A stretch of DNA of 64,000 bases from an uncultured Gemmatimonadaceae bacterium (GCA_963781585.1 CAWAGQ010000004.1:416001-480000), one strand, 5' to 3'; shown: positions 2,801-62,536, counted from the stretch's first letter. Numbers and translations are program-made. Notes: generated by a model from the letters alone, not told the origin.

Positions 2801-3555
2801 GCGACGGCGCCGTAATCCCGGCCTGGACCCGGGTGGCCATGTTTGTTCGCCTCCTGGCCGTACAGGGGTCCTGGAATTACGAGACCATGCTCGGCAACGG
2901 ACTTGGTTTCTGCGTGGAGCCGGCACTGCGGCGCCTTCCGGGTGGCGTTGACGGTGATGCCTACCGCGCGGCGCTGGCACGGCAGAGCCAGTATTTCAAC
3001 GCGCATCCGTACCTGGCGTCGGTGGCGGTGGGCGCTCTGGCTCGCGCCGAACTCGAGGGAGAGCCTCCCGCGCGCATCGAGCGCTTCCGCACGGCGCTTT
3101 GCGGCCCGCTGGGCAGCGTCGGTGACCGGCTGGTGTGGGCTACGATGCTACCAGCCTGCTCGTTCGCCGCCCTGTTCGTCTTCGGCATGGGTGGCGGACC
3201 GTTGCTTGTGGCCCTGGTGTTCCTGGTCGCCTATAACAGCGGGCATCTGGCGTTGCGGTTGTGGGGCTTGCAGGTCGGGCTGCGGCACGGATTGCAGGTG
3301 GCGCATTCGTTAGGCGCTCCGCTGCTGCGCCAGGCGCCGTTCTCGCTCGGCCGCGTGGCCACGGTTCTCGCGGGCCTGAGTGTTCCGCTGTCGGCGGCGC
3401 GCATCGTGCTGCCTCACGGTGTGCTGCTGGGGACGGTGATGGCCGTGACCGCGGTCGGTGGGGGGGTGATCGCCCGGCTGCACGGGCGGGTGGTGGGATG
3501 GAAGGTGTCGGTGGTGGTGCTGGTGGGATTCGTTCTGTGGGCGGTGATCCGGTGA
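2797..3555 (+). CDS. PTS mannose-family EIID
   Basis: QGSWNYETM, FNAHPY, GPLGSVGDRL motifs; ATG at 2797 overlaps the EIIC stop. Confidence 0.9.
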   Translation: MSDGAVIPAWTRVAMFVRLLAVQGSWNYETMLGNGLGFCVEPALRRLPGGVDGDAYRAALARQSQYFNAHPYLASVAVGALARAELEGEPPARIERFRTALCGPLGSVGDRLVWATMLPACSFAALFVFGMGGGPLLVALVFLVAYNSGHLALRLWGLQVGLRHGLQVAHSLGAPLLRQAPFSLGRVATVLAGLSVPLSAARIVLPHGVLLGTVMAVTAVGGGVIARLHGRVVGWKVSVVVLVGFVLWAVIR

Positions 3556-3821
3556 CCGCCGAGCGCTCGGTGCAGATCGCCAACCGGAACGGGTTGCACG
3601 CGCGCCCGGCGGCGGAGATCGTCAAGACCGCGGCTCGGTTCCGCAGCGAGATCACGATTGCGCGCGAGGATCTCGAGGTCAACGGAAAGAGCATCATGGG
3701 CGTGATGATGCTCGCCGCCGAGTACGGCACGCTGCTTCGGCTGCGCGCCGAGGGCCCCGACGCCGAGGAAGCCGTGGAGTCGATCGCGCAGGTCATCACC
3801 AGCCGGTTCGGCGAGGCCTGA
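3552..3821 (+). CDS. ptsH: Phosphocarrier protein HPr
   Basis: GLHARPA (His15) and NGKSIMGVM (Ser46) motifs; GTG at 3552. Confidence 0.95.
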   Translation: MTAERSVQIANRNGLHARPAAEIVKTAARFRSEITIAREDLEVNGKSIMGVMMLAAEYGTLLRLRAEGPDAEEAVESIAQVITSRFGEA

Positions 3822-3825
3822 CGCC

Positions 3826-5684: not shown

Positions 5685-6857
<1,173 letters not shown>

Positions 6858-7418: not shown

Positions 7419-7429
7419 TCGGCCGCCGG

Positions 7430-8602
7430 TTGCCATCGCTCGGCCGTTCCTGGCATGCGATCGTCGCGGCCTGCCTGGTCGGGGCGGTCGTGCTGTCGGC
7501 GCAGACCACCGGCGGCTCGCCGGTCTCGCAGGCGAGGACGGTCGACGGACGGGTCCTCCGTGGCACCCCGAGCGGAGAAAAACCGCTCGGCGGGCAGGTC
7601 GTGGTGCTGCATCGCATTGCCTCCGACAGCGCGGGGCCGGTCGATTCGGTCCGCACGGCGCAGGACGGACGATACCGCTTCCGCTATCGCGCCGCGGAGG
7701 ACAGCGTGCTGTACATCGTCTCCGCGCGCTACGCGGGAGTGGCCTACTTCACCGCGCCGCTGCGGGCGGCCGCGGTGCGCGGCAGCGATGCGGACATCGT
7801 GGTCTTCGATACTACCTCCGCCCCGATCGCGTTGTCGGTCCGCGGCCGCCACTTCGTCGTGACGAGGTCACCGAACGGGGGCGTGCGACGCGCCGTGGAT
7901 GTGTTCGAGATCGCCAACGACACGTCGGTCACGCGAATCTCCGGTCCGGCCACGCCGTCCTGGTCGGTTCGGCTGCCGGATGGGGCGACGACGCCTCGTG
8001 TCGAGCAGGGTGATGTGCCGGCGGGAGCGGTGAGCTTCGTGGGCGGTGTGGCCGAGGTGTTCGCGCCGTTTCCGCCGGGTCTCAAGCAGGTCGTTTTCTC
8101 GTACGAACTGCCGGCCACGGCGTTCCCCGCGCGAATTCCGGTCGAGTCACCCACCGGCGTGCTCGAGGTGTTGCTCCAGGAGTCGGGCGCCCGCGTCGAC
8201 GCGCCCGCGCTGGCGCGTCAGGACTCGGTCACGCTGCAGGGGACGAGCTATCAGCGGTACCTCGGCCAGAACCTGCCGGCGGGTTCACCGGTGCGCATCG
8301 TTCTCGAGTCGTCCGCGTCGGGCGGCCGGCTCCTGACCGGGGCCATGGTCCTGCTGTCGGGCGCGTTGCTGGCGTTAGGCTTCCGGGCCGGCCGGATCCG
8401 CGGGACGAGCCTGCCGGCCCGGCGCGGACGGCCCGATACCGCGGCACTGGCGCGCGACATCGCTACGCTCGACGCCGCGTTCGAGTCTCAGGGCGATCGA
8501 AGCGAGGCGTCGCGCACGGCCTACCAGCGGCGTCGCGCCGAGCTGAAGTCGCAACTGGTGCAGGCGCTGGCGGCTGTTGAATCCGCCGACCGCGGGCGCT
8601 AG
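7430..8602 (+). CDS. Exported hypothetical protein: beta-rich periplasmic part, C-terminal TM helix and short coiled coil
   Basis: Signal-peptide-like N-terminus, TAQDGRYRF (carboxypeptidase-regulatory-like), TM near residue 300; exact start uncertain. Confidence 0.65.
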   Translation: MPSLGRSWHAIVAACLVGAVVLSAQTTGGSPVSQARTVDGRVLRGTPSGEKPLGGQVVVLHRIASDSAGPVDSVRTAQDGRYRFRYRAAEDSVLYIVSARYAGVAYFTAPLRAAAVRGSDADIVVFDTTSAPIALSVRGRHFVVTRSPNGGVRRAVDVFEIANDTSVTRISGPATPSWSVRLPDGATTPRVEQGDVPAGAVSFVGGVAEVFAPFPPGLKQVVFSYELPATAFPARIPVESPTGVLEVLLQESGARVDAPALARQDSVTLQGTSYQRYLGQNLPAGSPVRIVLESSASGGRLLTGAMVLLSGALLALGFRAGRIRGTSLPARRGRPDTAALARDIATLDAAFESQGDRSEASRTAYQRRRAELKSQLVQALAAVESADRGR

Positions 8603-8862: not shown

Positions 8863-9753
8863 ATGTCCGTGTTTCGGTTTTCAGGGAGAAGGGCGTGGGT
8901 GTTCGCCGTGGTCGCCGCCGTGGCCTGCGGCGGCGACCGGTCGGCGCGCGGCGGCGTCATCGATGACTTCGGCGACCCGGTTCGCTCACCCGCATCTCCG
9001 CGGCGCATCGTATCCCTGAGCCCCGCCACCACCGAGATCCTCTTCGCGTTAGGCGCGGGGCCCCGGGTCGTGGGCCGGACCCACTGGGACACGTCGCCCG
9101 ACTCGGCGCGCCTCGTCCCCGACCTCGGGGACGGGATCCGGCCGAACGTGGAGCGCGTGCTGGCCGCCCACGCCGACCTCGTGGTGCTCTACGCCAGCAG
9201 CGAGAACCGTGACGCGGCGCAGGCGCTCCGGGCCGCAGGCATTCCGGTAGTGGCCCTTCGCATCGACCGGATCGCCGACTTTGGCCGCGCGACCCTGCTG
9301 CTGGGCCGGCTGGTCGGTGCCGAGTCGCGGGCTGGCTTGCTGGTGGACTCCGTCACGCGCACGCTCGATCGCGTCCGTGAAGCCACCCGCGGACTGCCGC
9401 GGCCTTCGGTCTTCCTGCCGGCCTACGATCATCCCCTCATGGCCATCGGAGCCGGCAGCTTCCTGTCCGAGCTGGTGGGAATCGCCGGCGGCCGGAACGT
9501 GTTCGGCGACCTGAGCGCTCCATCGCCCCAGATCTCGTTCGAAGAACTGCTGCGCCGGAACCCTGACGTGGTCCTCGCGGCACCCGCGACCGCGATGGCG
9601 ATTGCAAGGGAGTCGCGCTGGGACGCCCTGCCGGCGGTGCGCGACGGACACCTGCTGGTGCGCGACACGATGATCACGGCGCGGCCCGGTGTTCGATTGG
9701 GCGAGGCGGCCATGTCGTTCGCCCGTCTGCTGCACCCCGGCGCGGTGCCCTGA
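8863..9753 (+). CDS. btuF: Cobalamin-binding periplasmic lipoprotein
   Basis: Lipobox AVAC, DDFG..RIVSLSPATTEILFALG helical-backbone receptor; riboswitch upstream. Confidence 0.85.
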   Translation: MSVFRFSGRRAWVFAVVAAVACGGDRSARGGVIDDFGDPVRSPASPRRIVSLSPATTEILFALGAGPRVVGRTHWDTSPDSARLVPDLGDGIRPNVERVLAAHADLVVLYASSENRDAAQALRAAGIPVVALRIDRIADFGRATLLLGRLVGAESRAGLLVDSVTRTLDRVREATRGLPRPSVFLPAYDHPLMAIGAGSFLSELVGIAGGRNVFGDLSAPSPQISFEELLRRNPDVVLAAPATAMAIARESRWDALPAVRDGHLLVRDTMITARPGVRLGEAAMSFARLLHPGAVP

Positions 9754-9754: not shown

Positions 9755-10729
9755 ATGCGCCTGCGTCTGTTCGCCGTTCTGGGGGGCGCGCTGGTGGTGG
9801 CCGCGCTGGCCGGCATCGCAATCGGGGCCGTGACAATCCCGTTAGGCGGCGTGTGGCGCGCGCTGGGCGGAGCGGGGGACCCGGCCGTGATCGCGATCGT
9901 GCGCCAGGTGCGGCTCCCGCGCGTGGCACTGGCGGTCGCGCTCGGGGCCGCCCTCGGCATGAGCGGTGCGGTGTTGCAGGGTACCCTCCAGAACCCCCTC
10001 GCCGAGCCGTACCTGCTCGGCATCTCCGGTGGGGCGGCCGTGGGGTCGGTGACGGCGGTCGTGTTCGGCGCCACGCGGGTCGCTGTCGTGTCGGGCGCCG
10101 GCTTCCTCGGCGCGGTGGCCGCGGTCGGGCTGGTGCTGGCGGTGGCTCGCGCCGCGGTGGGTCGCGCCGATCCGCGCGTACTCCTCATGGCCGGCGTGGT
10201 CGTCGGGGCGTTCGCCAACGCCGCCATCATGGTGATGCTCGCCAACGCGCCCGCCACGCAGGTGCGCGGCGCTCTATGGTGGATGATGGGGTCGCTCGGC
10301 GCGGCCGACTGGGGTGATGTCCGGTGGCTGACGGCCGCACTCGTGGTGGCCGGAGGCCTGCTGGTCCATTGGGCCCGCGACATCGACGCGCTCGCCCTCG
10401 GACACGATGCCGCAGCCGCACTCGGCGTCTCACCGGAATCGGCCAGCCGCCGACTCTACCTGCTGGCGTCCCTGCTCGCCGCCGCCACCGTCGGCGTCGC
10501 CGGCCTGGTGGGATTCGTGGGGCTGGTGGTGCCGCACATCGCGCGCGCGTTGACCGGCTCGCGTCATCGACCGCTCCTGGCCGCCGCCGCCCTGGCCGGC
10601 GCGGCGCTCGTGGTGGTCGCGGATCTCCTCGCGCGCACGGTCCGCGCGCCCGCCGAGTTGCCACTCGGCGCGGTGACCGCTGTGCTCGGTGTGCCGTTCT
10701 TTCTGATTCTGCTCCGCCGCGCGTCATGA
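9755..10729 (+). CDS. btuC: FecCD/BtuC-family ABC permease
   Basis: RLPRV, QNPLAEPYLLG, GFVGLVVPH, ELPLGAVTA. Confidence 0.88.
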   Translation: MRLRLFAVLGGALVVAALAGIAIGAVTIPLGGVWRALGGAGDPAVIAIVRQVRLPRVALAVALGAALGMSGAVLQGTLQNPLAEPYLLGISGGAAVGSVTAVVFGATRVAVVSGAGFLGAVAAVGLVLAVARAAVGRADPRVLLMAGVVVGAFANAAIMVMLANAPATQVRGALWWMMGSLGAADWGDVRWLTAALVVAGGLLVHWARDIDALALGHDAAAALGVSPESASRRLYLLASLLAAATVGVAGLVGFVGLVVPHIARALTGSRHRPLLAAAALAGAALVVVADLLARTVRAPAELPLGAVTAVLGVPFFLILLRRAS

Positions 10730-11517
10730 TCGGCTTTCAGCAGGTTACCGCCCGCTATCCCGGCGCGGCCGCGCCGGCGATCTCCGACGTCTCCTTCGAC
10801 GCACCCCGCGGCGCGCTGACCGCGGTGGTCGGGCCTAACGGGAGCGGCAAGAGTACGCTGGTGCGCACGCTGCTGGGACGGGTGCCGGTGGTTGCCGGAC
10901 GCGTGGTCATTCACGGACGGGACATCGGCACGATTCCCCGACGCGCCGTCGCTCGCCTGGTGGCTGTTGTGGTACAGCGGGAGGAACCCGTCTTCGCGAT
11001 GCCGGTTCGCGAGTACGTCGCCCTTGGCCGCCACCCCCACGCCGGTTCGTGGTCACCGGTGCGGCCCGACGCCGGTCCCGTCTCGCGCGCCTTCGCCCTG
11101 GCGGGTGTCGGTGCCCTGGAAACGCGGCGTACCGACACGCTCTCCGGCGGGGAATGGCAACGCGTCCGGATCGCACGCGCCCTCGCGCAGGACACCGCGG
11201 CGCTGGTGCTCGACGAGCCCACGACGTTCCTCGACATCGCCCACGAAATGGAGTCGTTCGAGGTGCTGGCGCGACTGGCCGCGGATGGACACGCCGTCCT
11301 GGCTGTGAGCCACCAGCTCAACCTCGTCGCGCGATTCGCGGATCGCGTGATCCTGCTGCACGACGGCCGCGTGGCCGCTGCCGGGAGTCCCGACGAGGTG
11401 ATGCAGGCGCGCCTCCTCGAGACGATCTACCAATGGCCGCTGGTTGTTACGCGTGATCCGGCGGTCGGCGCGCCCACACTCGTTCCGCTTCGCCGTCGCC
11501 CGGCCCGTCCGCTCTGA
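10726..11517 (+). CDS. btuD: Cobalamin/iron-chelate ABC ATPase
   Basis: GPNGSGKS, LSGGE, LDEPT, SHQLN. Confidence 0.88.
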   Translation: MIGFQQVTARYPGAAAPAISDVSFDAPRGALTAVVGPNGSGKSTLVRTLLGRVPVVAGRVVIHGRDIGTIPRRAVARLVAVVVQREEPVFAMPVREYVALGRHPHAGSWSPVRPDAGPVSRAFALAGVGALETRRTDTLSGGEWQRVRIARALAQDTAALVLDEPTTFLDIAHEMESFEVLARLAADGHAVLAVSHQLNLVARFADRVILLHDGRVAAAGSPDEVMQARLLETIYQWPLVVTRDPAVGAPTLVPLRRRPARPL

Positions 11518-20027: not shown

Positions 20028-20561
20028 GTGACGCCAGGCAAGTCGACCGGCCCGGCCCCGGGTGGACACGGCGCCCCGAACGCGATCGCGCTGATGCGTC
20101 AGGCGCTCGATCTGGCGCGCGAGGCCGCGGCGGCGGGCGACGTGCCGGTCGGCGCGCTCTTGGTGTGCGGCGACCGGGTTCTCGGGCGCGGACAGAACCG
20201 CACGCTCCGCGACCAGGATCCCACGGCGCACGCCGAAGTCATCGCCCTGCGCGAAGCCGCCGAGTCGTTAGGCAGCTGGCGCCTGAGCGAGTGCGACCTG
20301 TACGTCACGCTCGAACCCTGCGCCATGTGCGCCGGGGCGCTGGTGCTGGCCCGTGTGCGTCGGGTGGTGTTCGGCGCCTGGGACGACAAGTCCGGGATGG
20401 CCGGCAGCGTCGGCGACCTGTTACGGCATCCCCGTCTCAACCATCACCCCGAGGTGCGCGGCGGGGTGCTGGCGGACGACTGTGGTGCGGTGCTGAAGGC
20501 GTTCTTCCTCGCGCGCCGATCACCTGCCGCGCAGGTTGACTATCTCCGCAAGCCCCAATAA
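20028..20561 (+). CDS. tadA: tRNA adenosine(34) deaminase
   Basis: DPTAHAE, TLEPCAMC, LNH; start may be ATG 20094. Confidence 0.92.
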   Translation: MTPGKSTGPAPGGHGAPNAIALMRQALDLAREAAAAGDVPVGALLVCGDRVLGRGQNRTLRDQDPTAHAEVIALREAAESLGSWRLSECDLYVTLEPCAMCAGALVLARVRRVVFGAWDDKSGMAGSVGDLLRHPRLNHHPEVRGGVLADDCGAVLKAFFLARRSPAAQVDYLRKPQ

Positions 20562-20576: not shown

Positions 20577-20663
20577 GGACAGGTGTCCGAGTGGTTGAAG
20601 GAGCCGGTCTCGAAAACCGGTATACGGGTAACCGTATCGTGGGTTCGAATCCCACCCTGTCCG
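20577..20663 (+). tRNA. tRNA-Ser(CGA)
   Basis: GGACAGG/CCTGTCC acceptor stem, CCGGT-CTCGAAA-ACCGG anticodon arm, long variable arm, GTTCGAATC; CCA not encoded. Confidence 0.95.
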
Positions 20664-20742
20664 CTGGCCGCGGATGGAGCGCGGGTGCGAGACCGGCGCG
20701 TGCGACACGGAAGACCCTCGCTCGCGATTCCGATGATGGTGA

Positions 20743-29857: not shown

Positions 29858-29879
29858 GGTTGGTCTTGACAGACGGACT

Positions 29880-42738: not shown

Positions 42739-44408
42739 TGCGCGTTTTCGACTGGCCGTGGTTCACTCCGCTCGCGCTCATGCTCGCGGCCGGCGCAGCC
42801 GCCGTGGTGGTGTTCGGTTTCCGGCGTCGGCTGGCCCGCCTAACGCGACTTGGCGCGCGCGATCTGGTGCGCCGGCTGGTGCCGGCATCGGCGCTGGGAC
42901 GGCCCACCTGGCGGGCCACCCGGCTGGGGGGCGCGGCGCTGCTTGGACTGCTCGCCCTGGCCGGACCGCGCTGGGGTCAGGAGCGCAACGTCATGCGTGG
43001 CGAAGGCATCGACATGGTGCTGGCGCTCGATGCGTCGCTGTCCATGCTGGCGACCGATGAGCAGCCCAACCGCCTGGAACGCATGAAGCAGGAGGTGCGA
43101 CGGCTGCGAGCGCAGTCGCGCGGCGACCGCATCGCGCTCCTGGCCTTTGCCGGCCGCAGCTACATTCTCACCCCCCTCACGGTCGACGACGGTGCCCTCG
43201 ACCTCTTTCTCGACAATCTGGACCCGTCGATCGTGGGATTGGCCGGCAGCTCGCTGTCACGCACGATCGCGCAGGGCGTCGATCTCCTCCAGTCGAGCCA
43301 CAGCGCGAGCGACCGCGCCATCGTCGTGATGAGCGACGGCGAGGCCTTCGAGGACGAACAGGACATCGTCGATGCGGCCAACCGCGCGGGTCAGGCAGGC
43401 ATCGCACTGGTCACCGTGGGGTTCGGCACCACCCAGGGATCGACGATTCCCCTGCGTCAGGGGTCGCAGGTCGTTCTCAAGCGCGATGCGAACAATGAAA
43501 TCGTCGTGACCCGATACCAGCCGGGATTGCTCGAGGCGGCCGCGCGGGCGGCCGGCGGCACCTTCATATCCGCGTCGGAAACGGACAAGGCATCGCGGAT
43601 CCGTGCCGCGCTGCAATCGCTCCGCACCGCCGGCCGCTCCGTGGAGGCAGGACGCACCGAGACGCCGCGATACCAGTTCTTCCTGTTGCCGGCGCTGTTG
43701 CTGGTGCTGCTGGATCTGTGGAACGCCGAGCGCGGCGAGCGAAGACCGTCCGCCGCTGCCGCGGCCGTCACCGCCAGTCTTCTGCTCACCAGCAGCTGTG
43801 CGATGCCCGGCGGTGTGGTAACGGACGCCGCGCGTGCGTACCGCGCTGGGCACTACGCGTCGTCGGCACGCCTGTATCGGAGCGCAATCGATCGCGGCGA
43901 CCGTCGGCTTGCGGTCATGTACGATCTGGGCACCGCAATGGTCGCGGCCGACTCGAACGCAACTGCGGTCGAGCCACTGGAGCGCGTGGCCAAGGCCGAG
44001 GAGGCGGAACTGCGGTATCGCTCGCTCTTCAATCTTGGGCTCGCGCACCTGAAGCGCGGCCTGACGGGGGCAGATGGCGCCGATAGCACGCGGCAGGAGC
44101 TCGATGGAGCGCTGGATGCCTACAAGCACGCCCTGCTCATGCAGCCGGACGATCTCGACGCGAAGTGGAATTACGAGCTCGCGCTGCGGAAGCGGCAGTC
44201 CGGGGGTGGCGGAGGGGGCGGCGGTGAGTCGCAGAGCGGCGGCGCCAGCGCGCCGGAACCGTCCCAGGCAGAACGTCCGAGCGGCGGCCTGGGCCAGCAA
44301 CAGGCCGAGCAACTGCTCAACAGCGCCGCACGCGAGGAGCGCGCGGTGCAGGGCCGCAAACAGCACGACGCGAAGTCCCAAACGCCCCCGGGCGGGAAAG
44401 ACTGGTGA
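42738..44408 (+). CDS. VWA (BatB-like) and TPR (BatC-like) fusion
   Basis: LAGPRWG, DASLS MIDAS, PLT, SDGE; then YDLG/FNLG TPRs, DAKWNYELA, Q/G-rich tail ending KDW. Confidence 0.85.
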   Translation: MRVFDWPWFTPLALMLAAGAAAVVVFGFRRRLARLTRLGARDLVRRLVPASALGRPTWRATRLGGAALLGLLALAGPRWGQERNVMRGEGIDMVLALDASLSMLATDEQPNRLERMKQEVRRLRAQSRGDRIALLAFAGRSYILTPLTVDDGALDLFLDNLDPSIVGLAGSSLSRTIAQGVDLLQSSHSASDRAIVVMSDGEAFEDEQDIVDAANRAGQAGIALVTVGFGTTQGSTIPLRQGSQVVLKRDANNEIVVTRYQPGLLEAAARAAGGTFISASETDKASRIRAALQSLRTAGRSVEAGRTETPRYQFFLLPALLLVLLDLWNAERGERRPSAAAAAVTASLLLTSSCAMPGGVVTDAARAYRAGHYASSARLYRSAIDRGDRRLAVMYDLGTAMVAADSNATAVEPLERVAKAEEAELRYRSLFNLGLAHLKRGLTGADGADSTRQELDGALDAYKHALLMQPDDLDAKWNYELALRKRQSGGGGGGGGESQSGGASAPEPSQAERPSGGLGQQQAEQLLNSAAREERAVQGRKQHDAKSQTPPGGKDW

Positions 44409-46605: not shown

Positions 46606-48345
46606 GTGTCCCGCATCGCTGTCCTGCCGAGTACCGTCGCCGACCAGATTGCCGCGGGTGAGGTGGTCGAGCGGCCGGCATCGGCGGTAAAGGAACTCCT
46701 CGAGAACGCGATCGACGCGGGCGCCACGTCCGTCGACGTGGAGATCGAGGATGGTGGGCGCGCCCTGGTGCGGGTCAGCGACGATGGATGCGGGATGGAC
46801 CGCGCCGACGCACTGCTTGCACTGGAGCGTCACGCGACATCGAAGATCCGGGCTGCGTCGGATCTGGTGGGAGTCTCCAGCTTCGGATTCCGCGGCGAAG
46901 CCCTTCCCGCGATCTGTTCGGTGTCGCGCCTCGAGTTGACGACCGCCACGGCCGACGGAGCCGGCGTGCTGGTGCGGGCGGCTGGCGGGGTCCGGGAGAG
47001 CGTGGAGACCGCGGCCCGGAGACGCGGCACGACGGTCAGTGTGGCTGACGTGTTCTACAACACGCCGGCACGCCGCAAATTCCTGCGCTCGGCCCGCTCC
47101 GAGTGGCGCTCGGTGCTGGAGACGATCACCGCGGTCGCGCTCGCGCGTTGCGATGTTCGCCTTCGCGTCACCGTCGACGGACGCGAGGCCGTGTCGCTCC
47201 CTCCCGCGCGCACGCTCCGGGAGCGCGTTGCTGCGCTTTGGGGGAACGCCTGGGCGGCTCGGTTCGTGGACGTGGATGCAGTCGTGGGTCCCGTTCGCGT
47301 CACGGGCCTGGTGGAGCGGCCCGGCGACGCCGGGACGTCCTCGCGCCGCGTGTCCGTGCTGGTGAACGGCCGGGCGGTGCGGGATTTCGGCCTGGTGCGG
47401 GGTGCCGAGGCGGCGTATCGGTCGGCGATTGCCCCCGGTGTGCGCCCGTCGCTGGTGCTCGCGATCGTGCTGCCGGGGGATGCGGTGGATGTGAACGTGC
47501 ATCCCGCCAAGGTGGAGGTTCGCTTTCACGATCGTTTCGGACTGGAGCGTGCGGTGGAGCAGGCGGTCCGTCGGGCGCTCGGCACCGCCGACAGCGTGGC
47601 CTCCCTCGGCGCGGGCATCATGACGTGGTCGCCCCGATCCTCGACGGTGGGACCGGCGGCCTCCGTCCTGTCACAGCTTCCCGCTGTCTCGGTGTCTCCG
47701 CTGTTCGCGCCGCCGGACTCGGACCCGACACCCGACGCCCGCGGACCAGGAAGCGATGCCGCAGTCAATGGGGAAGCGCCGTGGCAGCTCGTGCAGCTGC
47801 GGCGTGCGTACCTCCTGTACGAACATGAAGATGGAGTGGTGCTCATCGATCAGCACTCGGCGCACGAGCGGATCCTGTACGAGCGGTTTCTGCGGGAGCT
47901 GGAGCAGGGGAATGCACCCTCGCAGCGCTTGCTGCTCCCGGATACGCTGCATCTGTCGCCTGACGAGGCGGAAGCGCTGGATCGGCATGGCGAGGCGCTC
48001 GCACGCCTCGGGTACGAGCTGGAGCCGTTTGGCGGCCACTCGGTGATCGTGCGCGCGGTGCCGGCGCCCCATCCGCGCTTCGACGCGATCCGCTGCCTTC
48101 GCGAGACACTGCAGGGACTGAGCGGCGATCGCGGCGCCTCGGTGCACGCGCGACATGAGCGGTTGGTGGCCACCATCGCCTGCAAGGCGGCGGTGAAGGC
48201 GGGGGACGCACTCTCTCCCGAGGAGATGCGCGCGCTGTACCGGGCGCTCGCGTCCACAGCCCTGCCGGCCCACGACGTGCACGGGCGGGCGGCCATGGTC
48301 CGTCTGACCTGGGATGAGCTCGATCGACGCTTCGGGCGTCGTTAG
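46606..48345 (+). CDS. mutL: DNA mismatch repair protein MutL
   Basis: IAAGEVVERPAS, GFRGEAL, DVNVHPAK, endonuclease motif DQHSAHER, ACK. Confidence 0.96.
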   Translation: MSRIAVLPSTVADQIAAGEVVERPASAVKELLENAIDAGATSVDVEIEDGGRALVRVSDDGCGMDRADALLALERHATSKIRAASDLVGVSSFGFRGEALPAICSVSRLELTTATADGAGVLVRAAGGVRESVETAARRRGTTVSVADVFYNTPARRKFLRSARSEWRSVLETITAVALARCDVRLRVTVDGREAVSLPPARTLRERVAALWGNAWAARFVDVDAVVGPVRVTGLVERPGDAGTSSRRVSVLVNGRAVRDFGLVRGAEAAYRSAIAPGVRPSLVLAIVLPGDAVDVNVHPAKVEVRFHDRFGLERAVEQAVRRALGTADSVASLGAGIMTWSPRSSTVGPAASVLSQLPAVSVSPLFAPPDSDPTPDARGPGSDAAVNGEAPWQLVQLRRAYLLYEHEDGVVLIDQHSAHERILYERFLRELEQGNAPSQRLLLPDTLHLSPDEAEALDRHGEALARLGYELEPFGGHSVIVRAVPAPHPRFDAIRCLRETLQGLSGDRGASVHARHERLVATIACKAAVKAGDALSPEEMRALYRALASTALPAHDVHGRAAMVRLTWDELDRRFGRR

Positions 48346-49246
48346 GCTCCGCGTCATCTGCGGCCCCACGGGCGCCGGGAAGTCGGCGCTGGCGCTGCGC
48401 CTGGCGGCGGGCCGCGGCGGGGCGATTCTGTCCGCTGATTCGCGACAGATCTACCGCGGGTTCGACATCGGGACCGCCAAGCCGTCGTCCGCCGAGCGCG
48501 CTACGGTGCCGCATTTCGGCATCGACCTGGTCGACCCGATGGCGCGCTACTCGGCGGCGGAGTGGGCGGCGGCGGTCCCCGAATGGCTCGCGGCCTGTCG
48601 CGGCCTCGGGCGCCAGCCGGTGATCGTCGGCGGCACCGGGTTCTATCTGCGCGCGCTGTTTTCGCCCCTGTTCGAGGCGCCGACGGTGGATCTGTCGCGT
48701 CGCGACGCGCTGGCGGGCCATCTGCACGGGTTCGAAACCGATGCCCTCCGTCGGTGGTGCCGGGTGCTGGACCCGCGGCGCGCCCACCTCGGTCGGGCAC
48801 AGCTGTTGCGCGCCGTCGAAACCGCGGTCCTGACGGGCCAGCGCATCAGCGATCTGCACGTCGTACGATCCCGCGCGCCGCGCTACACCGCCCGCTATCT
48901 TCTGATGGATCCGGGTCGCGCGCTCGCCGGCACGATTGCCGAGCGCACCGATCGGATGTTGGCCGCCGGCTGGCTCGATGAGGTGCGCGCCCTGGTGGCG
49001 CGGATCCGGCCCGACGCACCGGCGTGGACAGCCACCGGCTACGACGCGTTGCGTGACGTCGTGGCCGGCGTGTGCACCCTCCAGCAGGCACGGGAATCGA
49101 TCGTCATGCGGACGCACCGCTACGCCAGGCGACAACGCACCTGGTTCCGCCATCAGCTCGAGGCGTCATGGACCACGCTGCTCGAACCACACGACGAGGG
49201 CGCGCTCGCGCGGGCGTCAGACTGGTGGGACGAGGGCGCCGCCTGA
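48314..49246 (+). CDS. miaA: tRNA dimethylallyltransferase
   Basis: GPTGAGKS, DSRQIYRGFDIGTAKP, VGGTGFY, YARRQRTWF. Confidence 0.95.
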   Translation: MSSIDASGVVRLRVICGPTGAGKSALALRLAAGRGGAILSADSRQIYRGFDIGTAKPSSAERATVPHFGIDLVDPMARYSAAEWAAAVPEWLAACRGLGRQPVIVGGTGFYLRALFSPLFEAPTVDLSRRDALAGHLHGFETDALRRWCRVLDPRRAHLGRAQLLRAVETAVLTGQRISDLHVVRSRAPRYTARYLLMDPGRALAGTIAERTDRMLAAGWLDEVRALVARIRPDAPAWTATGYDALRDVVAGVCTLQQARESIVMRTHRYARRQRTWFRHQLEASWTTLLEPHDEGALARASDWWDEGAA

Positions 49247-51206: not shown

Positions 51207-51960
51207 CCTGGTGCAGGGCGCCCTCTACGAGCGGCGCGCGCCAAACGACCTCGCCTTCCAACTCGGCGTTGCCCGGGTGGTTGTGTTCGACGAGGTCGAT
51301 TCCACGATGGACGTGGCCCACCGGCTGGCGATGGCTGGTGCCGCTCCCGGGACAGTGGTCGTGGCCGACGCTCAGACGGCAGGCCGGGGGCGTAGCGGAC
51401 GACGCTGGGTTTCGCCGCCCGGCGCGGGGATCTGGTGCACCCTGATCGAACGTCCGAACGACCCGCGCGCGGTCGACGTGCTCTCGCTTCGCGTCGGACT
51501 GCAGGCGGCCCACGCGCTCGATCGGTTTGCCGGGGCCGAGGTGGGGCTCAAGTGGCCTAACGACCTGTACCTGCACGGCGCCAAGCTTGGCGGCGTGCTG
51601 GTGGAAGGCCGATGGCGGGACGGCCGCCTCGATTGGGTGGCGGTGGGGATCGGCGTCAACTGCCTCGCGCCACCCGGTGTGGCGCACAGCGCGGTGCTGG
51701 GCGCCGGCACCGATCGCGTGGAGGTGTTGGCGGAACTCGTGCCGGCTGTGCGCGCGGCCGCAGCCGCACGCGGCCATCTCTCGGACCGTGAGCTCGCGGC
51801 GTTCGCCCGGCGGGACGTGGCTGCCGGATCACCGTGCGTGGAACCGCGGGCGGGTCGGGTCGCCGGCATCGCCGCCGACGGAGCGTTACTGGTCGTGACG
51901 GCGGCTGGCGTGGTGCGCTGCCGGGAGGGTGGACTTCGCATGGAGGGCGATCCGTCATGA
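51199..51960 (+). CDS. birA: Biotin-protein ligase (no N-terminal HTH)
   Basis: DSTMD, QTAGRGRSGRRW, KWPND, KLGGVL, GIGVN. Confidence 0.92.
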   Translation: MPDLVQGALYERRAPNDLAFQLGVARVVVFDEVDSTMDVAHRLAMAGAAPGTVVVADAQTAGRGRSGRRWVSPPGAGIWCTLIERPNDPRAVDVLSLRVGLQAAHALDRFAGAEVGLKWPNDLYLHGAKLGGVLVEGRWRDGRLDWVAVGIGVNCLAPPGVAHSAVLGAGTDRVEVLAELVPAVRAAAAARGHLSDRELAAFARRDVAAGSPCVEPRAGRVAGIAADGALLVVTAAGVVRCREGGLRMEGDPS

Positions 51961-52736
51961 TACTCGTCTTCGACATCGGCAACACCGAGACGACGCTCGG
52001 CCTGTTTGATGGCGAGGTGCTCCGTGCCCACTGGCGCATCGTCACTGATGTCTCACGCACGCCCGACGAACTGGCGCTCGTGCTGCGAGGCCTGCTCGCG
52101 GCGCGCGACGCCGCGCCGTCCGGGGTCACCGGGTGCGCGATCGCGTCGGTCGTGCCGGCGCTGACCGAGCCCCTGTCGGAGGCGTGTCGGGCCCTCTTTG
52201 GCGGCGATCCGATTGTGGTCGATGCCAGCGCCGCGCTGCCTATCACGCTGGATGTTCTGGAGCCCCTGACGGTGGGTGCGGACCGGATCGTGAACACGCT
52301 GGCCGCCAGTCGGCTGCTGGAGCGCGACACGATCGTCGTGGATCTGGGTACGGCCACCACCTTCGATTGCATCACAGCGGATGGCGTATTCCTGGGGGGC
52401 GTGATCGCACCGGGGGTGCGTTCATCCGCCGAGACGCTGTTTCGGAGGACCTCGAAACTCCCGGCCACCGAGCTGGCGGCCCCCGACCGCGTGATCGGAC
52501 GGCGCACTGAGGACTGTATCCGCTCCGGCGTTGTTTACGGCGCCGCCGAAGCGGTCGATGGCATCGTGAGGCGGATCAAGGGCGAGTGGCCGACGCCCCG
52601 GGTACCGATCGTGGTGGCCACCGGCGGCCTCGCACACCTCATTCAGCCCCACTGTCGCGAGGTGGAGCGCCTGGAGCCCAATCTGACCCTGGTAGGGCTC
52701 CGGCTGGCCCACGAGATCATCAGCGCTTCGCGTTAG
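51957..52736 (+). CDS. coaX: Type III pantothenate kinase
   Basis: DIGNT, VGADR, VDLGTATTFD, ATGG. Confidence 0.94.
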   Translation: MILVFDIGNTETTLGLFDGEVLRAHWRIVTDVSRTPDELALVLRGLLAARDAAPSGVTGCAIASVVPALTEPLSEACRALFGGDPIVVDASAALPITLDVLEPLTVGADRIVNTLAASRLLERDTIVVDLGTATTFDCITADGVFLGGVIAPGVRSSAETLFRRTSKLPATELAAPDRVIGRRTEDCIRSGVVYGAAEAVDGIVRRIKGEWPTPRVPIVVATGGLAHLIQPHCREVERLEPNLTLVGLRLAHEIISASR

Positions 52737-52750
52737 GCGCTGGAAGTACG

Positions 52751-55286: not shown

Positions 55287-55346
55287 AAGGCCAAAGGCCA
55301 AAGCCATAGGTAAAAGGCCAAAGGCCAAAGGCCAAAGGCCAAAGGC
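55287..55346 (+). repeat. Tandem heptamer repeat (AAAGGCC)n, about 8 units, partly degenerate
   Basis: aaggccaaaggccaaagccataggtaaaaggccaaaggccaaaggccaaaggccaaaggc. Confidence 0.9.
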
Positions 55347-55882: not shown

Positions 55883-58617
55883 CAGAAAGGCGACCAGCGG
55901 TCAGGCCGGGCATCCGGCGCCTCTTCCGTCTTGCACTCCGACGCCGGGATCAGGTGGTTCGTGATGTCGACGAAGAGATCCGGCTGCACATCGAATTGCG
56001 GGCCGAGCAGCTCATTCAAGAAGGCGTGTCCCCAGCGGCGGCCCGCGAGGAGGCCGAGCGACGATTCGGAGCGGCGGAGAGTGCCCGTGACCACTTGCAT
56101 CGCGTCGCCCGGCGGCGCGAGCGCGCGCTGGGGGTGCGGGAACGCGTCGGCGCGATCGTCGACGATGCGCGCCACGCGGCGCGCGGACTTCGCCGCGACG
56201 GCGCGTTCAGCGCATTCGCGGTGGGCAGTCTGGCGCTCGGCATCGGTGCCAGCGCGGCGACCTACGGCATCGTGGACCGGCTCCTGCTCCGCGGTCCCGA
56301 GCATGTGCGCAACGCGGAGCGCGTGGTGCGTGTCGTGCTGACGGCGAGGCGCGAGGGCTTCGGCGAGGTCAGGACCGGCGACTTCGGATACGTCATGTAC
56401 GATCATCTTCGCCGCGCCGCGCGACTGTTCGACGGCTTCGCCGGCTACGCGATGGAATCGGAGCCAATGGGGCGGGGATCTGCCATTCGCCCCATCGCCG
56501 CGGGGTACGCCACCGCCGATTTCTTCCCGCTGCTTGGCGTGTCCCCCCAGCGCGGCCGGTTCTTCACCGCCGACGAGGACCGGTCCAGCGGGGCGCAGCG
56601 AGTGACGGTACTCGGAGATGCCTTGTGGCGTGTCCAGTTCGGCGCGGACTCGAATGTCGTCGGGAAGACGATCACGATCGGCGGCGAGCCCTTCACCGTG
56701 ATCGGGGTGGCGCCTCGCGGCTTCAGCGGGGTCGACCTCTCGCGCGTGGACGCGTGGCTTCCGATGACGCTGAAGAGCAGCAACACCACCAGCGACTGGA
56801 CCCACAGCTGGGCTGCGGAGTGGATGCGTATCGTCGGACGCGTGCGCCCGGGCGTTTCGCTCGAGGACGCGAGTCGCGACGCGACCGAGGCGCATCGGAA
56901 CACCTACGATGGCGCCTCGGCGGTGCTGGCGCAGGCGCGGCTCGCCGTGGTGCCGGTGCTCTATACGCCGCAGGGGCGCGAGTCCACCCAGAGCACCGTG
57001 GCGCGGTGGCTGATGGGCGTCACGCTCATCGTCCTGCTGATCGCCTGCGTGAACGTGGCGAATCTGCTGGTGGCGCGCACCATCCGGCGGCGGCGCGAGG
57101 TCGCGGTCCGTCTTGCGTTAGGCGTGAGTCGCTGGCGGTTGGGGCGTTTCTTCGTCATCGAGAGTCTGGTCCTGTCGGTGGCCGGCGGGGTGGCCGCGCT
57201 GGGGGTGGCGGCGCTGATCACGGTGCTGGTCCGCGCGTCCCTCCTGGCCGGAGTCGAGTGGACGTCATCCGTGGTGAGCTGGCGCGTGTTCGCGGCAGCC
57301 ATGCTGACGGCCATGGCCTCGGGGCTGGTGGTCGGCGTGGCGCCGGCGATCAGTGCTGCCCGCCGTTCGCTGCAGGGCGCTCTCAGGGCGGGGGCGCGCG
57401 ACGGTGGTGGCCGTCGCCTGCGGCTCAGTATCTGGCCCACCGTGGCGCAGTCCGCGCTCTCGGCGGCATTGCTCATCGCTGCCGGCCTGTTCGTGCGCAG
57501 CCTGGCCCGGGCGCACGCGGTTCCTCTGGGATTCGATGCCGAGCGGGTGCTGTCGGTGCAGCCGAACTTCCAGCCGGTCCCCGCCAACGCGAATGCGACC
57601 ACCAGAGCGGCGGTGCGTGAGGCGCGCATCGCCACCATGCGCCGCGCGCTCCAGAAGGTGCGCACCCTGCCGGGCGTGGAGCACGCGAGCCTGGCGGTGG
57701 GGTCGCCGTTCGGCTACGCCTTTTCGATCTCGCTCTTCCTCCCCGGTGGCGACAGCGTCGCCGCCCTGGAAGGCGGAGGGCCCTACATCAGCGCCGTATC
57801 AGATGGGTACTTCGAAACGGTGGGCACTCGCCTCATTCGCGGCCGCACGTTCGCGGCCTCGGACGGGCCTGGATCCGAGCCGGTGGCCATCGTCAACACG
57901 ACCATGGCAAAGCTGCTCTGGTCGCACGACGACCCGCTCGGCAAGTGCCTCATCGTGGGGTCGCCGACGGCACCCTGTGCGCGTGTGGTCGGCATCGTGG
58001 AAGACGCGCATCGGGAGACCCTGCATGAACCGCCCGCGATGCAGTACTACATCCCGTTCGGTCAGGAGCGCGGGTTCGGCGGCACCGTGGCGCTCGTCCG
58101 TCCGCGGGGACGTCTCAGCGCCCTCGTCATTCCGCTGCGCCGGAATCTGGCAGGTCTGGACGGGCTGCTGGAGTCGGTGAATGTCGTTCCCTTGGAGGAG
58201 CATTTCGACGCTCTGGTGCGTCCGTGGCGGCTGGGTGCGACGATGTTCAGCCTTGGCGGCGTGCTCGCCCTGCTGGTCGCGGGGCTGGGTCTGTACAGCG
58301 TGCTCTCCTACCTGGTGGTGCAGCGCACGCACGAGATCGGCGTTCGCATGGCGTTAGGCGCCAGCGGTCGTCAGATCATGGCCCTGGTGCTCGGCGAGAG
58401 CCTCGTCACCGCCTCCGTGGGCGTCGCGCTCGGCGTGGCGGCGTCGTGGTACGCGGGTCGCTATCTCGAGGGACTGCTGTTCGAGACCTCGGCGCACGAC
58501 CCCGGCGTCCTGTTTGCCGCGGCGCTGACGCTGCTCGGTGCGGCCACCGCCGCGGCGCTTCTCCCCGCGCTGCGGGCCCGGCGCGTGGATCCTGTGCGGG
58601 CGCTGTCCGCGGAGTAG
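55879..58617 (+). CDS. ADOP-type duplicated MacB/FtsX ABC permease
   Basis: EEIRLHIE N-terminal motif, two MacB-PCD/FtsX units (IACVNVANL..RRREVAVRLALG; RTHEIGVRMALGA), DPVRAL. Confidence 0.88.
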   Translation: MTERRPAVRPGIRRLFRLALRRRDQVVRDVDEEIRLHIELRAEQLIQEGVSPAAAREEAERRFGAAESARDHLHRVARRRERALGVRERVGAIVDDARHAARGLRRDGAFSAFAVGSLALGIGASAATYGIVDRLLLRGPEHVRNAERVVRVVLTARREGFGEVRTGDFGYVMYDHLRRAARLFDGFAGYAMESEPMGRGSAIRPIAAGYATADFFPLLGVSPQRGRFFTADEDRSSGAQRVTVLGDALWRVQFGADSNVVGKTITIGGEPFTVIGVAPRGFSGVDLSRVDAWLPMTLKSSNTTSDWTHSWAAEWMRIVGRVRPGVSLEDASRDATEAHRNTYDGASAVLAQARLAVVPVLYTPQGRESTQSTVARWLMGVTLIVLLIACVNVANLLVARTIRRRREVAVRLALGVSRWRLGRFFVIESLVLSVAGGVAALGVAALITVLVRASLLAGVEWTSSVVSWRVFAAAMLTAMASGLVVGVAPAISAARRSLQGALRAGARDGGGRRLRLSIWPTVAQSALSAALLIAAGLFVRSLARAHAVPLGFDAERVLSVQPNFQPVPANANATTRAAVREARIATMRRALQKVRTLPGVEHASLAVGSPFGYAFSISLFLPGGDSVAALEGGGPYISAVSDGYFETVGTRLIRGRTFAASDGPGSEPVAIVNTTMAKLLWSHDDPLGKCLIVGSPTAPCARVVGIVEDAHRETLHEPPAMQYYIPFGQERGFGGTVALVRPRGRLSALVIPLRRNLAGLDGLLESVNVVPLEEHFDALVRPWRLGATMFSLGGVLALLVAGLGLYSVLSYLVVQRTHEIGVRMALGASGRQIMALVLGESLVTASVGVALGVAASWYAGRYLEGLLFETSAHDPGVLFAAALTLLGAATAAALLPALRARRVDPVRALSAE

Positions 58618-58629
58618 ACCGGGCGGCGA

Positions 58630-60516: not shown

Positions 60517-61326
60517 CTATAGCGCGAGACTCAATTGACGAGGGCTGCGACTCCGCGCCGAGCTCACACTGATCGGCGCGTCCTGCGCGGCGGCGACGAG
60601 CGTGCCCCGAAAGGCCGATCCGCGGAGGGCGCTCCCCATGGCGCGCAGCGCCGCGGCCGGAGTGTTGTTGTTCTCGCTGAGGTGGCAGAGCACGACATGA
60701 CGCAGCCCGCGATGGGCGCAGGCCCGCGCCATGACGCCCGCATCGGCGTTGCTGAGATGGCCGCGCGGACCAGCGATGCGCTGCTTGACCACCCACGGGT
60801 AGCGGCCGTTCCACAGCATGTCGTCGTCGTGATTGGACTCGAGCAGCAGGATGTCGAGGTCGGCAAAATGAGCCGTGAATCGCGGTGTCGCGTGCCCCAG
60901 ATCGTACACCACGCCGACGCGCACACCGCTGGAGCGCGCGGTTGCCACGAGCGCGAGCGGCTCATCGGCGTCGTGCGGTGTGCGCACGAACTGAACGACG
61001 AAGTCCTCCACCGCAAGTTCGCGGCGTGGTTCGACCGGATGCCTGACGACGCCGCGGCGGCTCGAGAGGGCGACGAGCGTCCCCGCAGACGCGTAGACGG
61101 GCCAGTTCCAGCGTCTCGCAGCGGCCGCGGCACCCGCGATATGATCGCCATGCTCGTGCGATACGATCAAGGCGGAGATTGACTCCGGGGCCACATCGAC
61201 CTGCCGCAAGCGACGCGCCAGGGTCGTCGGCGAGAAGCCGGCATCGATCAGCACGCGACATCGATCGCTCTCCAGCACGACCGCGTTGCCCTTGCTCCCG
61301 GATCCCAGGATGTGTACGCGCGTCAA
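60517..61326 (-). CDS. MBL-fold metallo-hydrolase (YycJ/WalJ-like)
   Basis: GSGSKGN, SHEHGDH, PHDA, LESNHD, GHLSN, HLSENNN. Confidence 0.88.
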   Translation of the reverse strand: MTRVHILGSGSKGNAVVLESDRCRVLIDAGFSPTTLARRLRQVDVAPESISALIVSHEHGDHIAGAAAAARRWNWPVYASAGTLVALSSRRGVVRHPVEPRRELAVEDFVVQFVRTPHDADEPLALVATARSSGVRVGVVYDLGHATPRFTAHFADLDILLLESNHDDDMLWNGRYPWVVKQRIAGPRGHLSNADAGVMARACAHRGLRHVVLCHLSENNNTPAAALRAMGSALRGSAFRGTLVAAAQDAPISVSSARSRSPRQLSLAL

Positions 61327-61342
61327 TGGAGGATCACCCGGG

Positions 61343-62536
61343 TCAGTCGGTTCTGAGGCGGCGGGCGTAGGCCGCCGTGAGCTGCCGGCGTGTCCGGTCG
61401 CTCAGCACCACGTGCCGGCGCGACATCATGCGCTCGGCGCTTCGCAGGAATCCCTCCAGCGCGAACGTCTCACCTGTCTCCGTCCCCCACGCAAAGGGCG
61501 GCACCATCTTGGGGGTGGTTTCGCCGCCAAATACGTTGGCCCCCGCGCCGATCACGCATCCGGTCGTGAGCCGCGTGCCGATGGCCGTCTTGGCATGGTC
61601 CCCGAACATCGTGCCGAGGAACTGCATCCCCGTTTCCCGTATGCCGTGCGGCGTCCAGAGTGACACCCGGCCGTACGTGTTCTTCAGATTGCTGTTGACG
61701 GTGGAGGCGCCCAGGTTGACCCATCGCCCGAGAACCGAGTGGCCAATGAAGCCGTCATGCGCCTTGTTGGCGTGTCCCGTGAACACGGTTGTGCTCACCT
61801 CCCCGTGCACCCGGCAGTCATCGCCGATCGAGCTGCCGGTGACGATTCCGCTTTTCACGACCGAACGCTCGCCGATCACGCATGGGCCCGCGAGCCGCGT
61901 GAATGCCTGTATCGCGGCGCCACGCCGGACGAGAATCGGGCCGGCGCTCGCATCGAAGACGACGTAGGGCTCGATGCAGACGTCAGGCTCCAGATAGATC
62001 TGGTGGGTGCCTAACGGAGCGAGCGCGGTGGCGGGCTCCAGACCGAGCCGGGAGGCGAGGGCGGGGATGTCGCTCTCGAGCATGGCCCCGAGGTGTTGGA
62101 CAACGTCCCACACCGCTTCGACCCACCACCCCTCGACGTCAACCGCCGCACCGGCCGCGATCGCGTCGAGCGAGTCCGCGGCCTCGAGACTCGCGCGTGG
62201 GATGGCGTCGCGAACGCGCACGGCGGCCACTCGCCCCTGGCACCGCCAGACCGCGACGTCCCGGGGAACTGAGCGCGCGTCCAGAGAGATCGCACAGCGC
62301 GAATTCACGAGGACGCTGCCCGCTGGAATGTCATCACGCAGGATCGCGGGGGCTCCCGGCTCATCGAAATCGGCCAGGTGGTCCGCAGCCACGATCCCGT
62401 CGGTCGTGTCGTCCAGCGCGATCTCCCACCGGCGCCGAAGGACCTCCGCCCCCAGGCGCAGCTCACAGGCGGGGCGGGTGAGCGCGAAGGGCTCGAAATC
62501 GCGCGCGAGGGCGTCGTCGAAGAAGATCAGGCTCAC
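61343..62536 (-). CDS. GlmU-related putative sugar nucleotidyltransferase with hexapeptide repeats
   Basis: FEPFALTRP, NKAHDGFIGHS, WVNLGA, NLKNTY. Confidence 0.75.
   Translation of the reverse strand: MSLIFFDDALARDFEPFALTRPACELRLGAEVLRRRWEIALDDTTDGIVAADHLADFDEPGAPAILRDDIPAGSVLVNSRCAISLDARSVPRDVAVWRCQGRVAAVRVRDAIPRASLEAADSLDAIAAGAAVDVEGWWVEAVWDVVQHLGAMLESDIPALASRLGLEPATALAPLGTHQIYLEPDVCIEPYVVFDASAGPILVRRGAAIQAFTRLAGPCVIGERSVVKSGIVTGSSIGDDCRVHGEVSTTVFTGHANKAHDGFIGHSVLGRWVNLGASTVNSNLKNTYGRVSLWTPHGIRETGMQFLGTMFGDHAKTAIGTRLTTGCVIGAGANVFGGETTPKMVPPFAWGTETGETFALEGFLRSAERMMSRRHVVLSDRTRRQLTAAYARRLRTD

Follow-up and report, generated by a model that had tools for sequence, protein, structure and literature searches.

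A hyper-abundant, coding-embedded octamer of Gemmatimonadaceae DNA whose core fits the integron recombination core

The DNA analysed here, 64,000 nt of an uncultured bacterium (GCA_963781585.1, CAWAGQ010000004.1:416001-480000; hereafter the window), comes from the chromosome of a member of the Gemmatimonadaceae, and one octamer, CGTTAGGC or its reverse complement GCCTAACG, recurs throughout the genes encoded there. Fifty-eight genes were called with a self-trained codon model and cover 92% of the window; 53 of them lie on the + strand and, likewise, 53 of the 58 proteins have Pfam matches, mostly to housekeeping functions. Sugar uptake and central metabolism are represented by hprK, a mannose-type phosphotransferase system (PTS), ptsH, ptsI, metK, pyrR, pyrB and pyrC, DNA and RNA handling by recO, selB, scpA, scpB, mutL and miaA, and chaperones and cofactors by clpB, groES, groEL, birA and coaX. 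An ADOP-type permease and an IS3 transposase pair are among the further genes.

Counted on both strands, the window holds 22 exact copies of the octamer, 12 on the + and 10 on the - strand, at a density of one per 2.9 kb. The first-pass annotation, counting by eye, had placed all 22 correctly and missed none, and its rough zero-order figure of about two expected copies agrees with a computed 2.4 at the window's G+C content of 68.2%. Dinucleotide shuffles of the window give still fewer (mean 0.76, maximum 4 in 100), and an order-3 Markov model expects 0.82, an excess of ~25-fold that ranks the octamer top among the 8-mers of the window (z ~23). The word has sharp edges: both-strand counts are 38 for TTAG, 27 for GTTAGG, 24 for CGTTAGG as for GTTAGGC and 22 for the octamer, and TTAGGC and CGTTAG (24 each) are practically never found outside copies containing GTTAGG. 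It is not a palindrome, CGTTAGGC differing from GCCTAACG, and the positions flanking the window copies were found to carry no information beyond the 8-mer. A longer motif or a repeat family was considered and ruled out, as the flanks are uninformative and the contexts all distinct. A dispersed repeat of the repetitive extragenic palindrome or miniature inverted-repeat transposable element type, which would be longer, structured and mostly intergenic, was likewise rejected, given that conservation ends at the 8-mer and that 20 of the 22 copies are wholly intragenic. Among five near-matches claimed in the first-pass annotation, four stand with a single mismatch each, namely CGTTAGGT at 4424 and 17644, TGTTAGGC at 14648 and AGTTAGGC at 26478 on the - strand; the fifth, at 23804, has two mismatches and shares the CCTAAC core only.

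In all, 21 copies lie inside or overlap protein-coding genes, 13 co-oriented with the gene and 8 antisense to it, and one is intergenic. The commonest reading, NCG-TTA-GGC, accounts for 11 copies. It is found as TCG-TTA-GGC (Ser-Leu-Gly) in a PTS mannose-family IID gene (2797-3555 +; copy at 3308..3315 +) and in a tadA-like deaminase gene (20028-20561 +; 20266..20273 +), as GCG-TTA-GGC in a gene without Pfam match (7430-8602 +; 8373..8380 +, Ala-Leu-Gly), in a periplasmic binding protein gene (8899-9753 +; 9047..9054 +) and twice in a MacB/FtsX-type permease gene (55954-58617 +; 57116..57123 + and 58352..58359 +), and as CCG-TTA-GGC in a FecCD permease gene (9755-10729 +; 9840..9847 +) and, co-oriented with its gene on the other strand, in a nucleotidyltransferase gene (61343-62536 -; 62009..62016 -). 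ACG-TTA-GGC is read in a DUF2231 membrane protein gene (30125-30952 +; 30471..30478 +), in a dihydroorotase-like gene (33578-34963 +; 33774..33781 +) and in scpA (37795-38526 +; 37955..37962 +, Thr-Leu-Gly).

Six copies, all on the - strand, are read as G-CCT-AAC-G. An ATP-binding cassette (ABC) ATPase gene (10726-11517 +) has GGG-CCT-AAC-GGG at 10833..10840 within the peptide GPNGSGK, which we take to be the Walker A motif; a MerR/B12-binding regulator gene (22638-23615 +) carries both CCG-CCT-AAC-GCG (22955..22962) and CCG-CCT-AAC-GAT (23414..23421); pyrB (32616-33581 +) has CTG-CCT-AAC-GCG (33203..33210); the dihydroorotase-like gene has its second copy as GCG-CCT-AAC-GGG (34645..34652); and a biotin-protein ligase gene (51199-51960 +) has TGG-CCT-AAC-GAC in a conserved KWPND (51555..51562). 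The reading GC-CTA-ACG occurs twice, in both cases as CGC-CTA-ACG (Arg-Leu-Thr) from a - strand copy, in metK (5685-6857 +; 6103..6110) and in a VWA-domain gene (42738-44408 +; 42838..42845). Two + strand copies supply a stop codon as CGT-TAG: one, at 52731..52738, spans the stop of coaX (51957-52736 +), and the other, at 48340..48347, spans that of mutL and is read as GTT-AGG in the overlapping start of miaA (48314-49246 +). The 3' end of mutL runs 32 bases into miaA as called (48314-48347), where the octamer is translated as Arg-stop for mutL and as Val-Arg for miaA. The sole intergenic copy (27945..27952 -) is separated by ~250 bp from the two IS3-type transposase genes (26574-27694 -).

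The first-pass annotation had described the word as sitting in at least four reading frames, the stops of mutL and coaX included, and as relying on otherwise rare codons; the frames are as it described them, and the word holds 11 of the 18 TTA codons among the 58 window genes. No tRNA-Leu(UAA) gene was seen in the window, though the word creates most of the TTA codons there. The excess also persists under codon- and dicodon-aware nulls, on which that annotation had staked its claim. For the 20 copies wholly inside genes, synonymous permutation yields a mean of 0.96 and a maximum of 5 within genes (1000 runs) and of 0.43 and 3 across the window (300 runs), codon-order permutation 0.32 and 3 (1000 runs), and a dicodon (first-order codon) model that keeps the protein sequences fixed and was trained on DNA including the copies, 1.76 and 7 (500 runs). 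Four frames, both gene strands, stop codons, an intergenic site and an excess that survives these nulls (0.3-1.8 expected against 20) together argue that the pressure acts on DNA and not on protein, as had been proposed.

Relatives encode the same region without the word. A MutL-based scan, limited to one genome per species, yielded 80 loci, of which the four closest, L001 to L004, are metagenome-assembled genomes of Gemmatimonadales or Gemmatimonadaceae with 54-71% MutL identity over the best segment; the closest MutL homologues stand at 95% and 92%, the next at no more than 74%, and those with names are Gemmatimonadaceae. All four loci share the gene order of the window's 37.8-62.5 kb, and yet the octamer has 0, 1, 1 and 0 copies in their 60 kb, against ~21 expected at window density. 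The other 76 loci of the scan, from other phyla, hold at most one copy each. Motif-compatible peptides in the relatives are occupied at 1/48, 1/9, 0/20 and 0/35. At alignable copy positions they carry ordinary codons (CCG-AAC, CTC) and sometimes different amino acids. Thus, for the scpA copy the L004 orthologue has ACG-CTC-CAG (Thr-Leu-Gln), for the VWA-domain copy the orthologues have CGC-CTC-GCC (L001) and CGT-CTC-ACA (L002), for the biotin-protein ligase copy CCG-AAC (L001), CCT-AAC (L002) and CCG-AAT (L003), and for the nucleotidyltransferase copy TCC-ATC-GGA (Ser-Ile-Gly, L002); the Leu codon of the tadA-like copy is replaced by CTC, CTG, CGC or GCG in aligned homologues of four other loci. 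No private octamer of comparable strength was found in L001-L004 or in L005, L007 and L011 (short pieces, 10-22 kb).

Enrichment outside the window, a further point on which the first-pass annotation had let its claim depend, is found in Gemmatirosa kalamazoonensis KBS708, a cultured Gemmatimonadaceae strain with two megaplasmids in the plasmid collection. Our sample comprised 12 segments, 11 of 50 kb taken at even intervals along plasmid 1 and one from plasmid 2. All of them are rich in the octamer, with 20-65 copies each against ~1.6 expected (zero-order): 215 + and 189 - copies in the plasmid 1 segments and 20 in that of plasmid 2. Leaving aside a segment occupied by an integron (see below), there are 360 octamers in 550 kb (190 +, 170 -), or one per 1.5 kb, where an order-3 model with the copies masked expects 1.5, an excess of ~240-fold. 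Of 425 copies with 20-nt flanks, 423 are distinct, and the flanks hold at most 0.3 bit per position, which amounts to codon periodicity plus one position 3' of the word where T is avoided. Position 1 of the word tolerates change (360 copies with C, 42 with T, 17 with A and 7 with G) and a mild excess is seen for the transitions at position 4 (77, expected 24) and position 5 (70, expected 14), while single-mismatch variants at positions 2, 3, 6, 7 and 8 occur at expectation; the strict core is thus GTTAGGC, with a preferred 5' C. Two tandem repeats of 12 and 15 nt with the octamer in each unit were seen as well (L092 5342-5436 and L089 35,994-36,031), the 12-nt unit being GCG-TTA-GGC-GCG, which would give Ala-Leu-Gly-Ala repeats if translated so. 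A tblastn search of PLSDB with the ADOP-type permease for further Gemmatimonadota plasmids matched the two Gemmatirosa records only. The word is therefore lineage-specific and present in at least two Gemmatimonadaceae lineages, and the earlier proposal of a genome-wide, lineage-specific signal is borne out, since it is abundant in the Gemmatirosa replicons and at background in the four syntenic Gemmatimonadales and the 76 loci of other phyla.

How often a compatible site is occupied depends on the peptide context, and the gradient is alike in window and Gemmatirosa: xPN[ADEGV] is occupied at 6/12 and 93/169 sites, respectively, [APST]LG at 11/79 and 158/625, [CGRS]LT at 2/30 and 12/268 and VR at 1/50 and 14/376. 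The frequency of the word drops with the rising codon cost of the frame, and any frame and either orientation can be used. It dictates the choice of rare codons and stops: in Gemmatirosa, 158 of the 210 TTA codons, 20 of the 39 TAA stops and 19 of the 77 TAG stops lie within it. Coding DNA of Gemmatirosa has 0.57 copies per kb, and copies that touch non-coding DNA reach 1.40 per kb. Occupancy shows no trend across codon-adaptation quartiles of the genes (27-34%) and so carries no information.

The word apparently overrides some protein preference, too. Relative to amino-acid composition, [APST]LG is in excess by 1.46x in the window, 1.34x in Gemmatirosa and 1.05x in the relatives, and PN[ADEGV] by 1.91x, 2.40x and 0.82x, the expectation being crude and the relatives' control set small (10,000 aa). 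The Gemmatirosa excess of [APST]LG (160) about equals the number of occupied sites (158) and the unoccupied sites (467) about equal the expectation (465). This near-equality suggests that the DNA word drives amino-acid replacements besides synonymous codon choice.

The first-pass annotation had remarked that the 7-bp core matches the integron core. PMC3053210 describes attC sites as defined by the cores RYYYAAC and GTTRRRY, and the strict core GTTAGGC does fit the latter. Gemmatirosa plasmid 1 carries a complete integron at ~810.3-857.8 kb (L090 10,280-50,000 and L093 1-7,786); a large integron on this 1.1-Mb replicon is already published (PMC9024848). Its array has 84 attC sites with a median length of 97 nt, 320-1045 bp apart, and complementary R''/R' boxes flank each cassette. 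The intI gene (L093:6827-7786; 423 bits on TIGR02249, cut-off 265) adjoins the array on the same strand as the cassette open reading frames (ORFs) and downstream-adjacent to them, orientation and boxes being our own reading, and the likely attI junction is GGCTAACG at L093 ~6549-6556. The attC boxes are GCCTAAC followed by G and GTTAGGC preceded by C, that is, the octamer. At the R' box the octamer is found in 29 of the 84 sites; the other 55 differ from it, as CGTTAGAC (13), CGTTAGCC (11) and others. Elsewhere in Gemmatirosa these two variants are unenriched (2 copies for 2.0 expected and 1 for 2.2, respectively), so that the dispersed word is far more specific than the recombinase's tolerance. 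The array attC 8-mers ATTCGTTA and AATCGTTG recur just three times each in the remaining 11 segments, where their surroundings differ from those of array attC. Further matches to the array 12-mer attC pattern with at most two mismatches lie at L093 20,250 (single) and 29,342-31,813 (a cluster of four), and this group outside the main array may be an integrase-less attC cluster, as far as the pattern matches go.

Of the 57 octamers in the 46-kb array, 55 lie in attC boxes and only 2 in the 39.7 kb of cassette interior, against one per 1.5 kb elsewhere. The depletion in mobile DNA that the first-pass annotation had suggested looking for is thus seen in Gemmatirosa, and since cassette interiors are nearly devoid of the octamer, the word accumulates in resident and not in mobile DNA. 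The IS3-type element of the window, with an HTH_Tnp_1 ORF and an rve integrase-core ORF, has no octamer inside but is, at 1.1 kb, too short to weigh much; it gave no megablast match in the plasmid collection, Gemmatirosa plasmids included.

The window copies themselves are not attC sites, a possibility ruled out by the lack of a partner, L box, hairpin, cassette or integrase and by their position in housekeeping genes. In an attC site the inverse core RYYYAAC is placed 57-141 bp upstream of the core, and L boxes and an imperfect palindrome lie in between. None of the 21 gaps between neighbouring copies in the window is shorter than 200 bp, so there is no attC-like pair, and the flanks are unconserved; dispersed copies in both window and Gemmatirosa show no L box, partner box or flank conservation. 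Outside the array, seven -/+ pairs with a spacing of 80-143 nt were considered as solitary attC sites and rejected, being unlike array attC. Following up the earlier remark on the core has thus led to the Gemmatirosa attC R boxes but not to attC sites in the window, and the identity of word and integron core would be either a coincidence or, at most, a lead.

The observations amount to a hyper-abundant word that a pressure at the level of DNA has written into long-resident sequence and that is neutral as to orientation and overrides codon preference. We tentatively read it as a self-DNA tag accumulated through biased uptake or recombination, of the type of the uptake signal sequence (USS) of Pasteurellaceae and the DNA uptake sequence (DUS) of Neisseriaceae, a plausible reading that we hold with less than even confidence. 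An import or recombination step for conspecific DNA would prefer fragments with the exact word, whether at a competence receptor for DNA on the cell surface or in the processing of incoming DNA; alleles gaining the word would be over-transmitted through homologous replacement, up to the point at which codon and protein selection offset this drive. The word would thus come to serve as a tag of self DNA, and mobile DNA without a homologous partner in the population, such as cassette interiors and the IS element, would gain no word. More speculatively, the same recognition may also favour the capture of cassette DNA, given the identity with the R box.

Likeness of anatomy is what links the word to these systems, and the analogy to uptake sequences or HIP1 made in the first-pass annotation holds in that sense only. 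USS and DUS, like the word, are short, non-palindromic, lineage-specific, present in both orientations and mostly within genes in the cheapest frames; they too are enriched by a hundred-fold or more, rare in mobile DNA and spaced at about one per 1-3 kb, and the peptides they encode are in proteome excess. Their own density is ~1 per 1.1-1.2 kb; phased AT-rich flanks accompany USS, and inverted pairs of DUS often act as terminators. The word differs in having neither phased flanks nor inverted pairs, in occurring in another phylum and in that its core is that of integron recombination. According to PMC12614218, natural transformation supplies chromosomal integrons with cassettes. The anatomy shared with uptake sequences and HIP1, the proposal of HIP1 as an uptake signal and the feeding of integrons by transformation are the grounds on which a drive of the USS/DUS type is ranked first.

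Several points weigh against it. Uptake, transformation and competence data for the phylum are absent from the searched literature, and a review of the phylum contains neither "competence" nor "natural transformation". Among the 58 window proteins there are no competence proteins (ComEA/ComEC, DprA, type IV pilus, DNA receptor). The extras of USS and DUS are missing, there being no flank signal and no pair of opposite orientation closer than 80 nt, the latter holding for all 349 gaps considered. Cassette depletion fits any process acting over long residence, or selection against internal recombinase sites, and a plain uptake model leaves the match to the integron core unexplained.

A less likely but possible explanation is modelled on HIP1 (GCGATCGC, cyanobacteria): a methyltransferase or short-patch repair system would recognise the 7-8 bp word, which would accumulate by biased mismatch correction or by selection for methylated sites. 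HIP1 is given as 15- to 300-fold over-represented (PMC5861425), and the ~25-fold and ~240-fold excesses of the window and Gemmatirosa are comparable; both words are hyper-abundant octamers, embedded in coding sequence and free of flanks. That variants at five of the eight positions stay at expectation looks like all-or-none recognition, and two methylases recognise HIP1 (PMC13756078). The word, however, is asymmetric and missing from four Gemmatimonadales, whereas HIP1 is a palindrome, has two known methylases and is phylum-wide. No methyltransferase or Vsr-type gene is present among the 58 window proteins, and informative deamination variants are expected only 0.2-2 times, too few to reveal depletion. 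To our knowledge, a contiguous, fully specified and asymmetric methyltransferase site of 7-8 bp would be unusual. The function of HIP1 itself has long been debated, and is now leaning to DNA uptake (PMC5861425, PMC13756078), the latter source proposing it as an uptake signal.

It is unlikely that the word is an R-box half-site of the integron integrase or another tyrosine recombinase, the dispersed copies being docking, decoy or attG-like sites. GTTAGGC fits GTTRRRY and forms many R''/R' boxes of the 84-attC, intI-bearing Gemmatirosa integron, cassettes can integrate at genomic attG sites (PMC12614218, citing Loot 2024), and cutting at internal sites would likewise predict the depletion of cassette interiors. 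The word is, however, too specific, stricter than the R boxes, which vary in 55 of 84 cases through variants unenriched genome-wide; L box and flank conservation are lacking, the -/+ pairs do not resemble attC, and ATTCGTTA and AATCGTTG are rare elsewhere. Unlike attC, the window copies are placed at the codon level in housekeeping genes, and recombinase sites in essential genes are expected to be avoided. The window has neither an attC-like pair nor, among its 58 proteins, a tyrosine recombinase. We know of no other integron-rich bacteria that over-represent their own R box.

A compromise, to which we give an equally small chance, is that a tag for uptake or for incoming DNA has converged on the integron R box, conspecific DNA and cassettes being preferentially imported and recombined. 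Each attC has up to two copies of the word, and cassettes would therefore be favoured imports. In a bolder variant, an integron-integrase-like protein may itself read the dispersed copies. Such a convergent tag, if true, would be the first uptake sequence outside Proteobacteria (and Cyanobacteria, if HIP1 counts) and the first mechanistic coupling of uptake specificity with an integron system.

That each copy is selected as the site of a nucleoid-structuring or chromosome-organising protein seems improbable. A role in chromosome structure has been argued for HIP1 (PMC5861425). The spacing of the word is near Poisson and slightly more even, with a coefficient of variation of 0.96 in Gemmatirosa (mean 1505 bp) and 0.76 in the window (mean 2795 bp) and slightly fewer gaps below 500 bp than expected. 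HIP1-type words are spaced periodically at 10-90 kb, and the figures for the present word describe local spacing within pieces of 50-64 kb. Near-absence from the interior of the 46-kb array, on the other hand, clashes with a replicon-wide structural role, and we know of no nucleoid protein that depends on a single exact, asymmetric site of 7-8 bp recurring every 1.5-3 kb.

A Chi-like recombination hotspot or another replication-oriented signal, of the type of FtsK-orienting polar sequences (KOPS) or architecture-imparting sequences (AIMS), is very improbable. Like the word, these are over-represented octamers of resident DNA within genes, rare in mobile DNA, but they are skewed to one replication strand and the word is not. 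Of 31 intervals along the stretch, 27 show positive GC skew, which places the stretch on a single replichore, and 12 of the 22 copies are on the G-rich strand (P of 12 or fewer at 75% skew, 0.03). For the 11 Gemmatirosa segments the maximum-likelihood strand skew is 0.54, and the log-likelihood speaks against a skew of 0.65 by 4.75 units, against 0.70 by 12.5 and against 0.75 by 25.4. This absence of polarity rejects Chi/KOPS-type behaviour, in line with the near strand balance noted in the first-pass annotation. Finally, a mere by-product of codon, dicodon or peptide usage, which the 11 of 22 copies in one Leu-Gly frame might suggest, is refuted by the four frames, stops and intergenic copy, by the four codon-level nulls, by the near-confinement of the partial contexts TTAGGC and CGTTAG to GTTAGG copies and by relatives that encode the same proteins with ordinary codons.

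The known words of this kind, hyper-abundant and written into coding sequence, are few (USS, DUS, HIP1, Chi, KOPS), and each of them launched work on DNA import, repair or segregation. The present word, of about the strength of USS or HIP1, sits in a barely studied, soil-dominant phylum; no report linking Gemmatimonadota with it or with uptake sequences was found in the searched literature, subscription papers and supplements lying outside the search. Since the cultured strain KBS708 has a finished genome, tests of uptake, methylation and binding are directly feasible, and the identity with the integron core in a genome with an 84-attC integron offers a testable link from natural transformation to cassette capture. 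In practice, the word could serve as a marker to separate resident from mobile DNA and to aid the binning of metagenomic contigs of this lineage.

Some minor features of the window are unrelated to the octamer. Two tRNA-Ser genes lie 3' of the tadA-like gene at 20577-20664 and 20743-20830, with anticodons CGA and GGA. Other top-ranked words are AATCCCACC, which derives partly from tRNA T-arms, AGAAACTGC, dispersed within genes, and AAGGCCAAAG, given by a tandem array of the heptamer AAGGCCA (8.7 copies, 85% matches) at 55287-55346, directly 3' of the groEL stop, between groEL and padR. Under the order-3 model the palindrome CTCGAG shows a moderate excess, with 152 occurrences against 88 expected in the window and 176 against 116 in Gemmatirosa (L081), and the related CTCGAGAA is in excess in the relative L001 (11 against 1.1); the CTCGAG-type excess is a separate compositional feature that extends beyond the motif-bearing lineages.

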